DNA of 64,000 bases from Candidatus Nomurabacteria bacterium (GTDB lineage Bacteria > Patescibacteriota > Minisyncoccia > Phycocordibacterales > UBA918), in the NCBI GenBank assembly GCA_020632015.1, contig JACKGI010000003.1:65421-129420 (forward strand), in the 5' to 3' direction. Below the pieces are notes generated by a model. It was not told the origin of the DNA. It ran no database searches and saw only the letters and a program-made list of their open reading frames with translations. Each line of letters opens with the position of its first letter. The stretch's first letter is position 1. The position numbers and the translations under genes are program-made. Positions 51,641 through 51,894 of this stretch are shown one piece after another.

Positions 51641-51714
51641 GTCGGCGTAGCTCAGTTGGTTAGAGCACAGCACTCATAAAGCTGGGGTCGGAGGTTCAAA
51701 TCCTCCCGTCGACA
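51641..51714 (+). tRNA. tRNA-Met(CAT), elongator or Ile2-type
   Basis: Manual cloverleaf: acceptor GTCGGCG/CGTCGAC, D-arm GCTC-AGTTGGTTA-GAGC, loop CTCATAA, T-arm GGAGG-TTCAAAT-CCTCC. No CCA. Confidence 0.85.
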
Positions 51715-51728
51715 CAGTTATAAAAACC
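51697..51728 (+). repeat. direct repeat copy 1 (tRNA-Met 3' end plus 14 nt)
   Basis: CAAATCCTCCCGTCGACACAGTTATAAAAACC is identical at 51847-51878. Confidence 0.9.
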
Positions 51729-51741
51729 CGTTAGGGTTTTT
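51722..51741 (+). terminator. terminator 1 after tRNA-Met
   Basis: AAAAACCC-GTTA-GGGTTTTT. The stem extends outward to GTCGACACA/TGTGTCGAC, which pairs the tRNA acceptor 3' strand. Confidence 0.7.
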
Positions 51742-51743
51742 AT

Positions 51744-51788
51744 TGTGTCGACTGAAAACAGTCTGGGAGACTGTTTCAAGGATTTGAA
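51744..51788 (+). repeat. inverted tRNA-Met 3'-end copy split by TGGGA-loop hairpin H2
   Basis: TGTGTCGAC + GAAAACAGTC-TGGGA-GACTGTTTC + AAGGATTTGAA. This equals the reverse complement of TTCAAATCCT..GTCGACA with 3 nt replaced by the hairpin. Confidence 0.85.
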
Positions 51789-51846
51789 AACCGGAATGAT
51801 GTGAGCTGGAGTCGAAGACGAACAAATATACTTTGTGATTTGTGAC

Positions 51847-51878
51847 CAAATCCTCCCGTCGACACAGTTATAAAAACC
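51847..51878 (+). repeat. direct repeat copy 2 of the tRNA-Met 3' end
   Basis: Identical 32-mer located 150 bp downstream of copy 1 and followed by its own terminator. Confidence 0.9.
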
Positions 51879-51894
51879 GCCGTAAGGGCGGTTT
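51872..51894 (+). terminator. terminator 2 (after the repeated tRNA-Met 3' end)
   Basis: AAAAACCGCC-GTAA-GGGCGGTTT followed by GTTG. Confidence 0.7.

Follow-up and report, generated by a model that had tools for sequence, protein, structure and literature searches.

How the 3' end of a tRNA-Met gene came to stand twice within a short distance, with an inverted copy of itself in between, is the question raised by one locus in the 64,000 nucleotides of Candidatus Nomurabacteria DNA analysed here (the window). A preliminary description of the locus, made from the letters alone, had offered three explanations: a miniature tRNA-targeting integrative element, the scar of a deleted island, or a processing or regulatory structure. 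The window has ~40% G+C and codes for LigA, GatC/GatA, RF2 and FtsE-like ORFs among scattered tRNAs. One of its proteins is listed at NCBI under 'Candidatus Kaiserbacteria bacterium'. All relatives of the nucleotidyltransferase gene beside the locus come from Patescibacteria MAGs with labels such as Kaiserbacteria, Paceibacteria and Nomurabacteria.

The tRNA-Met gene (anticodon CAT) that hosts the module was placed by ARAGORN at 51641-51715 of the forward strand. The Rfam tRNA model matched it with 67.9 bits and set its end at 51714. A repeat search confirmed the perfect 32-nt direct repeat described earlier, with a proximal copy (t1) at 51697-51728 and a distal copy (t2) at 51847-51878, 150 bp apart from start to start and with 118 bp between them. 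The proximal copy consists of tRNA positions ~56-73 and the trailer CAGTTATAAAAACC; the distal copy begins inside the T-loop, at C56. Depending on the tRNA end that is used, the repeat takes in the last 19 nt of the tRNA plus 13 of trailer (ARAGORN) or 18 plus 14 (Rfam). It runs from C56 to 13-14 nt past an intact tRNA, as in the footprint of integration into a tRNA gene. By arithmetic, a 32-mer repeat within 3 kb would arise by chance with a probability of ~1e-13. There is no ORF in the 118 bp between the copies, and hence no recombinase gene there.

The features between and around the two copies all lie on the forward strand. Overlapping the end of t1 is T1 (51720-51743, ATAAAAACCC-GTTA-GGGTTTTTAT), a weak intrinsic-terminator-like hairpin of A-tract, CCC/GGG stem and T-run that, from sequence and fold, is the tip of a long hairpin. 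It is followed by the inverted 3' strand of the acceptor with 2-3 trailer nucleotides (IC-a, 51744-51752, TGTGTCGAC), recognised from the sequence and a search for inverted repeats, which pairs with t1 in the minimum free energy (MFE) fold. A hairpin with a TGGGA loop (P3, 51753-51778, TGAAAACAGTC-TGGGA-GACTGTTTCA), evident in sequence and fold, splits the inverted copy. Its other half is the inverted T-loop and T-stem (IC-t, 51779-51788, AGGATTTGAA), which forms 10 bp with TTCAAATCCT in the MFE fold. As the reverse complement of the tRNA end reads TGTGTCGAC-GGG-AGGATTTGAA, the module has GGG swapped for the 26-nt hairpin, and the earlier account of an inverted tRNA 3' end with 3 nt replaced by the TGGGA hairpin stands. 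The core of this hairpin, AGTCTGGGAGACT, occurs twice in the window (at 50616 and 51760) against 0.09 occurrences expected. The rest of the interval (51789-51846) is an internal domain that an alignment with 9 relatives assigns to a short version of type B. It ends in ..TTTGTGAC, the stem of which closes at the first base of t2. Beyond the distal copy stands T2 (51872-51900, AAAAACCGCCGTAAGGGCGGTTTGTTGTT), made up of a terminator-like site at 51879-51892 and TTGTTGTT. Each copy had been said to be followed by a terminator of its own. Both T1 and T2 are a hairpin plus T-run by sequence, but a terminator consensus scan called only T2; T1 contains only 3 G-C pairs, and the long stem takes up its T-run. 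Relatives mostly have a strong hairpin and a T-run in this place. A search of Rfam families across 50500-52300 returned nothing but tRNAs and noise, whether at gathering thresholds or with the cut-off relaxed to E = 10.

Next, we folded the module. The stretch 51692-51792 forms a three-way junction with a 12-bp T-loop arm, an acceptor plus T1 arm of roughly 19 bp and the TGGGA hairpin, in agreement with the proposal that the inverted acceptor lengthens the T1 stem to about 20 bp. The fold energy of this stretch is -47.6 kcal/mol, with z-scores of -8.3 (RNA) and -8.75 (DNA), and none of 200 shuffled sequences folded as well. Sequestration of the acceptor strand by the inverted copy is predicted by the MFE folds. 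In those of the read-through RNA, the 5' half of the tRNA pairs with the distal copy t2 instead.

The window holds four such units, the module and three others (M1, M3 and M4). M3 (51960-52128, reverse strand) follows a tRNA-Asp on the same strand (52129-52203) and was found by repeat search. It comprises a T1, a degenerate inverted copy, a hairpin, an internal domain of type A (covariance match at 51974-52048, 84.7 bits) and a 20-nt distal copy at 51960-51979, with a spacing of 170. M4 (62620-62945, forward strand; sequence and repeat searches) runs from a type B 3' arm that reaches 62798 to a 19-nt copy of a tRNA-Gln end (62799-62817), a terminator (62825-62848) and an inverted copy (62859-62869 and 62896-62905) split by a TGGGA hairpin (62871-62893), with a truncated type A domain thereafter. 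One 26-nt stretch of M4 is 96% identical to M3. M1 (50584-50749, forward strand; found by its repeats) lies in the leader of the initiator tRNA-Met (50750-50821). It contains a 27-nt repeat made of 19 nt of flank and the first 8 nt of the tRNA, a TGGGA hairpin (50613-50631) with the same core AGTCTGGGAGACT as that of the module, a type A domain (model match at 50630-50705) and a D-arm-like hairpin, and a promoter-like site lies upstream of it. This leader arrangement (acceptor 5' strand copy, P3, type A) is conserved in eight genomes including the window. In it P3 takes the D-arm position after the acceptor 5' strand copy and has a GG-containing loop. In the window and in 6 of 7 other genomes, 44-45 nt separate the end of the type A match from the initiator tRNA downstream; among the other genomes surveyed the distance was 24 nt in L055 and 144 nt in L059, with an extra pseudo-copy between.

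To place these units in a wider setting, we surveyed 80 related Patescibacteria loci together with the window, in which ARAGORN found 238 tRNAs, 234 of them scorable. With a tolerance of at most 1 mismatch in 16 nt of the tRNA's own 3' end, that end was repeated 123-344 nt downstream at 51 of the 234 tRNAs (elongator Met, initiator Met, Asp, Thr-GGT and Thr-CGT); only one copy among the 238 lay further than 600 nt away. Inverted blocks of at least 14 nt matching the cognate tRNA accompanied 54 of the 234, as against 5 of 234 in a non-cognate control, and 30 of these 54 lacked a detectable distal copy. The parts always follow one another as tRNA end, T1, inverted acceptor, P3, inverted T-loop, internal domain, t2 and T2. 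By sequence, a few families of internal domain can be told apart, types A, B and C. The repeats measure 17-108 nt and derive from the target, and the inverted copy is internal and complementary to that target. A covariance model of type A found 68 copies in 666 kb of related loci and 0 in 656 kb of control CPR loci. Forty-eight of the 68 stand within 500 nt after a tRNA on the same strand, and 8 are ahead of an initiator tRNA. None of the 59 tRNAs in control CPR contigs had a 3' duplication. The same tRNA may carry type A, type B or nothing, depending on the genome, and some loci (L043, L032, L025 and L037) hold arrays of two or three units. Literature searches returned no description of these units, and this large family, seated at tRNA 3' ends of Kaiserbacteria-type Patescibacteria, is apparently undescribed before.

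Orthologous loci indicate how such units came to lie where they do. At several loci, what follows t2 has its orthologue in the trailer that stands right behind the tRNA of unit-less relatives. The unit is thus an insertion, and it brings a proximal tail and T1 while displacing the old tail and its terminator. The tRNA gene is left intact, since a replacement 3' end (t1) comes with the unit, as does a terminator-like hairpin (T1). Filled and empty sites were found for tRNA-Met (filled in L025; empty in L028, L030, L051, L036, L014, L062 and L034), tRNA-Asp (filled in L068; empty in L040 and L035) and tRNA-Thr (filled in L062; empty in L057, L014 and L043), and empty sites in relatives also cover the unit of L021. 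The distal copies decay, with 3 mismatches in L043, a truncation in L022 and 1-2 mismatches in the strains L164-L167. The terminators Ta and Tb stand in opposite order in L048 and L021, as expected if units exchange at tRNA-tail repeats. Junctions are constant for each type, at T-loop 55/56 (..GTGAC|C..) for types B and C and at 53/54 for type A, whose last hairpin, GAAYNN-GTA-NNRTTC, takes in T54-C56 of the distal copy.

For the module itself, we turned to eleven contigs that encode the exact downstream DUF2238 protein, ten of which were compared. The module is identical in all 4 other same-species contigs that cover it (L164-L167), apart from the 1-2 mismatches in their distal copy, and neither an empty site nor an excised circle or tandem junction turned up for it. 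These four contigs have, after the distal copy, a promoter-like site, a 65-aa ORF and a terminator in place of T2 and M3. The arrangement of the window is common to L163, L168 and L170; L172 begins inside the T1 of M3, short of its distal part. Among strains 99.5% identical to one another, some have M3 and others lack it, with breakpoints 2-3 nt past the tRNA-Met-type tail and the tRNA-Asp end. This amounts to polymorphism at the locus, though not of the module, and could have come from homologous replacement anchored on the conserved tRNAs. A comparison of relatives, which the preliminary description had called for, thus gave a fixed module beside a polymorphic neighbour and empty sites elsewhere in the family. 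The idea of a miniature tRNA-targeting element gained ground at the level of the family, from filled and empty sites, the T-loop start of the repeat, patchiness and shuffling, the polymorphic neighbour and a larger element with the same type of arm, but not from an empty site of this module.

We then looked for signs of selection on structure. In the type A domain, 17 of 20 pairs have changed on both sides. Its cells at paired positions are 93.6% paired, compared with 69% in shuffled alignments (0 of 500 reach the observed value) and 32-53% in slid controls. The type B alignment of 9 relatives has an invariant GGGGTCG...GTGAC and a closing stem, GGUCG/UGACC, with a conserved G.U, and RNAalifold supported no helix in it beyond this closing stem. 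The P3 hairpin keeps its position in relatives while its stem sequences are quite different, and the loop motif GAGCGNAGCGAA occurs in more than one domain type. In 41 of 51 units (p = 7e-7), the sense (tRNA) strand has the more stable fold of the two. A.C 1x1 mismatches are rarer on that strand (14, as against 49 for the antisense strand), indicating that G.U/G.T pairs are tolerated on the tRNA-sense strand only. Units at orthologous tRNAs are 69-88% identical as against 64-74% for the adjacent gene, the unit being the better conserved in 10 of 11 pairs. The suggestion of a processing or regulatory structure has accordingly gained support from the covarying stems, the sense-strand bias and the conserved version in the initiator-tRNA leader.

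A larger element carrying the same arm next to a recombinase had been named as something to search for, and a partial counterpart exists within the window. The tRNA-Gln gene (57961-58032, forward strand, ARAGORN) is met on the reverse strand by the C-terminal remnant of a large serine recombinase (58023-58495; profile search and tblastn) that converges on it. Together they form the left end of a 4.8-kb segment bounded by a 19-nt repeat: the 19-nt tRNA-Gln end recurs 4785 nt from the gene, with a type B arm on the inner side of the far copy and the same T-loop junction (GTGAC|C..) as in the module. The remnant includes a 112-aa ORF on the reverse strand, which has 1400 homologues. Sequence searches of Pfam, NCBIfam and PDB with this ORF returned nothing, and its identity as a recombinase came from an exhaustive profile search. 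Among six long homologues that were scanned (five of 500-549 aa and one of 404 aa), the Recombinase domain was found in 6, and Resolvase and Zn_ribbon_recom in 5 each. By tblastn, a frame-shifted continuation of the ORF overlaps the tRNA end. In 43 of 80 metagenome loci with homologues, the end of the recombinase gene adjoins or overlaps a tRNA that converges on it (Gln, Asn, Arg, Asp or His). Within 10 kb, the relatives at tRNA-Gln/Asn in these 80 loci had no distal tRNA copy, and the recombinase loci had none of the cassette domains. The left half of a unit (T1, inverted copy and P3) is missing at the island's left end. From sequence, the link between the degraded tRNA-Gln island and the small units is suggestive only, and a tRNA-targeting large serine recombinase is a candidate for the inserting enzyme, the sole one seen.

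Several other origins and roles were considered and set aside. A comparison of the window with a phage collection matched tRNAs only, and three IMG/VR scans with type A patterns gave nothing in viral sequence except chance matches in coding DNA. On reading the sequence, a promoter role of the TGGGA hairpin fits the copy at 6805 alone and not the others; the core motifs of a hammerhead or other ribozyme and of an archaeal bulge-helix-bulge intron are absent; and a primer-binding site of retroviral type does not apply, the inverted copy matching the gene trailer and not CCA. Group I introns of Patescibacteria tRNAs sit at position 35/36 (PMC13011429) and are a different phenomenon.

Cumulatively, we think it somewhat probable that the module is a fixed copy of a family of non-coding cassettes that target the T-loop, and that its sense strand, probably as a read-through or leader RNA, bears a selected structure. 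The cassettes are highly structured, ~120-200 nt long, and inserted in the T-loop/3' end of tRNA genes in Kaiserbacteria/Paceibacteria-type Patescibacteria. The insertion lies between the T-loop and the original trailer, with the old 3' end (t2) and T2 pushed downstream. Insertion may have proceeded by site-specific recombination, and from the junctions that are constant for each cassette type we infer a crossover at T-loop 54-56. The form under selection would be single-stranded and most likely RNA, arising from read-through of a weak T1 or as the 5' leader of the initiator tRNA, and the inverted copy may serve to make the duplicated tRNA tail double-stranded in an RNA three-way junction. An empty site would then have GGTTCAAATCCTCCCGTCGACACAGTTATAAAAACCGCCGTAAGGG directly behind the tRNA body (..CCCGTCGACACAGTTATAAAAACCGCCGTAAGGG), and a circle or tandem junction would read ..TTTGTGACCAAATCC..AAAAACCCGTTAGGG or ..GATTTGTGACCAAATCCTCCCGTCGACACAGTTATAAAAACCCGTTAGGG. 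Besides the fixed state of the module and the possible homologous replacement next door, further considerations weigh against cassettes: no recombinase is tied to the small units; a serine recombinase acting on double-stranded DNA leaves the inverted copy and the strand bias unexplained; conservation above that of coding DNA and a fixed leader position suit an RNA useful to the host as much as a selfish cassette; and T1 precedes the greater part of the unit, so that 3' units would be transcribed only by read-through. More tentatively, the units may make up a mobile system, in which non-coding cassettes home to the tRNA T-arm, the three-way-junction hairpin complementary to the target acts as a folded single-stranded RNA or DNA site of recombination or recognition, units stack and shuffle beside tRNAs as integron cassettes do beside attI, and types A, B and C are a cargo of structured RNAs. 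We regard this fuller version as possible rather than probable.

The most serious competitor holds that the units are functional RNAs encoded by the host and not mobile, namely structured domains in the 3' trailer or 5' leader of tRNAs that arose by local duplication and are inherited vertically. They would use tRNA promoters and tRNA-like helices (the inverted copy with t2) as processing signals, or control maturation or read-through. Compensatory pairs, the sense-strand bias and conservation exceeding that of the neighbouring gene all agree with this, as do the loop motif GAGCGNAGCGAA found in more than one domain type and the pairing of the tRNA 5' half with t2 in read-through MFE folds. 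So does the leader version, with its P3 in the D-arm position, its GG-containing loop and a P3 and type A domain that follow a promoter-like site and precede the initiator tRNA by 44-45 nt in seven genomes, the window among them. Yet the filled and empty orthologous sites are clear, distal and inverted copies decay (as in M3), one tRNA carries type A, type B or nothing by genome, a terminator-like hairpin stands ahead of each 3' unit, and no Rfam family matches. We find this account rather unlikely, both for the RNAs themselves and for the processing or control roles given to them.

Two further alternatives were weighed. If a larger integrated island, comparable to the tRNA-Gln element, had lost its interior and left its two ends, the type B arm and GTGAC|C.. 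junction that the 4.8-kb segment shares with the module, next to a recombinase remnant, would be accounted for, as would the 43 of 80 recombinase homologues that abut a tRNA 3' end. Random deletions should give broad sizes, however, in contrast to spacings confined to 123-344 nt with one copy beyond 600 nt among 238 tRNAs. Moreover, the island's left end lacks the series T1, inverted copy and P3, the recombinase loci lack the cassette domains, and the units are under constraint, with a fixed architecture and conservation above the adjacent gene. The scar that had been put forward for this locus is thus disfavoured, and we judge it improbable. A simple local tandem duplication fares worse. Whole units do undergo it, as the long repeats (59-108 nt) in the arrays of L043, L053, L057 and L062 attest, but here the repeat covers no more than 32 of 150 bp, the inverted copy is the one part of the intervening 118 bp that is related to the tRNA, and the architecture recurs at different tRNAs in dozens of genomes. 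Simple duplication, which the preliminary description had named as part of the outcome that would overturn it, is refuted by the family data as a sufficient explanation, and a chance repeat is excluded by the repeat, core-count and fold statistics. Taken together, duplication or chance is highly improbable as the origin of the module.

The genomes concerned are among the smallest and most streamlined known, yet no fewer than a third of the tRNA genes sampled have one or more units, and these are better conserved than an adjacent enzyme gene. If the units are mobile, they would represent a new minimal form of tRNA-targeted insertion with an unusual hairpin complementary to its target, one that is harmless by design in that the tRNA tail is restored and a terminator supplied. 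If they are RNAs, they add several new and abundant classes of structured RNA tied to tRNA transcription and processing, and this in a phylum about whose RNA biology little is known. In both cases they matter for tRNA annotation and for the prediction of islands from partial tRNA repeats, and they may cause metagenome assemblies to break or turn chimeric at such loci.

Insertions by integrases into tRNA genes, flanked by attL/attR repeats, reportedly include a class with a T-loop sublocation, attributed to Williams in 2002. The units resemble them in a repeat that extends from the T-loop to the 3' end or just past it, in a regenerated tRNA, in a displaced old end and in the occurrence of empty sites. 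They differ in having 100-190 nt between the repeats without integrase or cargo, and in possessing an inverted target copy, a multi-hairpin fold, a strand-biased structure and arrays. Prochlorococcus tycheposons and cis-mobilisable elements (CIMEs) form tandem arrays of tRNA-targeting elements and their remnants, with members that span kilobases and bear genes. Partial tRNA repeats punctuate arrays beside a tRNA in both cases, and in both the non-autonomous members would use a recombinase in trans, whereas the units here are non-coding, small, of near-constant size and conserved in structure. BOX, Correia, RUP, REP/BIME and the Rickettsia palindromic elements are small structured repeats of intergenic or MITE-like kind. 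Like them, the units are multi-copy, modular and non-coding, with hairpins and combinatorial sub-modules; unlike them, they have neither terminal inverted repeats of their own nor a short target duplication of fixed length, they invariably target a tRNA end, and each is in part complementary to that end. Integron attC and the attP(+) of CTX phage are recombination sites that act as a folded single strand, a long imperfect hairpin of which one strand is used. The T-loop GTTCRAA does not, on reading, fit the attC core GTTRRRY, and the cargo here is a structured non-coding domain. By analogy only, the site and its inverted copy could likewise form a long imperfect hairpin with a bulge or branch, and the cassettes are likewise stacked beside a fixed site in variable order.

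The region around the module (the 150-bp unit after tRNA-Met) and M3 (its sister unit after tRNA-Asp) varies among strains. In four same-species contigs covering the module (L164-L167), window 51867-52127 is represented by a different haplotype (L165 811-1107, likewise in L164, L166 and L167), in which M3 and T2, the terminator behind the distal tRNA-tail copy of the module, are swapped for a promoter-like site (TTGACA/TACTTT), a hydrophobic ORF of 65 aa and, directly against tRNA-Asp, a bidirectional terminator. Comparison of L164 1319-2330 with window 50860-51878 revealed an identity of just 65-76% across the nucleotidyltransferase gene. 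Identity rises to 100% where tRNA-Met begins, stays there to the end of the module, and is 99.6% further on. This jump at a conserved tRNA reflects horizontal replacement, or else the assembly is chimeric there.

Among the five tRNA genes in the window, tRNA-Thr(GGT) (52998-53071) is the only one lacking a unit, and a plain terminator hairpin lies downstream of it. Truncated 5'-half pseudo-copies of initiator tRNA-Met were found in the related Patescibacteria loci L002 (~3490-3588), L032, L046 (two) and L059, about 92-99 nt upstream of the genuine gene, each retaining acceptor strand and D-arm together with a stretch, CTCATAA, that resembles an anticodon loop. The 5' and 3' parts of tRNA-Asp are split by a long insert in L014 (~4927-5240), L056 (~6450-6790) and L063 (~6390-6740), and these genes escape ARAGORN. 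The inserts are probably group I introns at position 35/36, which are on record for tRNAs of Patescibacteria (PMC13011429).

Window 6805-6968 contains a TGGGA-loop hairpin, TAATAGCT-TGGGA-AGCTATTA, followed by TATTGAA, and a LOOT RNA (Rfam RF03000, 76.9 bits), which the hairpin precedes by 17 nt. The two diverge from a minus-strand gene of 431 aa that resembles large serine recombinases (5406-6701). LOOT may sit in a unit of this type or be tied to recombinase elements. A third large-serine-recombinase gene (15423-16994) lies in a stretch of 50% G+C and is flanked by inverted repeats of 134 nt each that are 97% complementary (15438-15571 and 17202-17335). This segment looks invertible or IS-like.

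Type A and type B/C internal-domain hairpins, otherwise dissimilar, share the motif GAGC-N(1-3)-AGCGAA in their apical loops (for example, L025 4885-4900 and L002 7430-7445). It often includes TAGCGA, a sequence similar to the CS-6 motif found in single-strand origins of plasmids.
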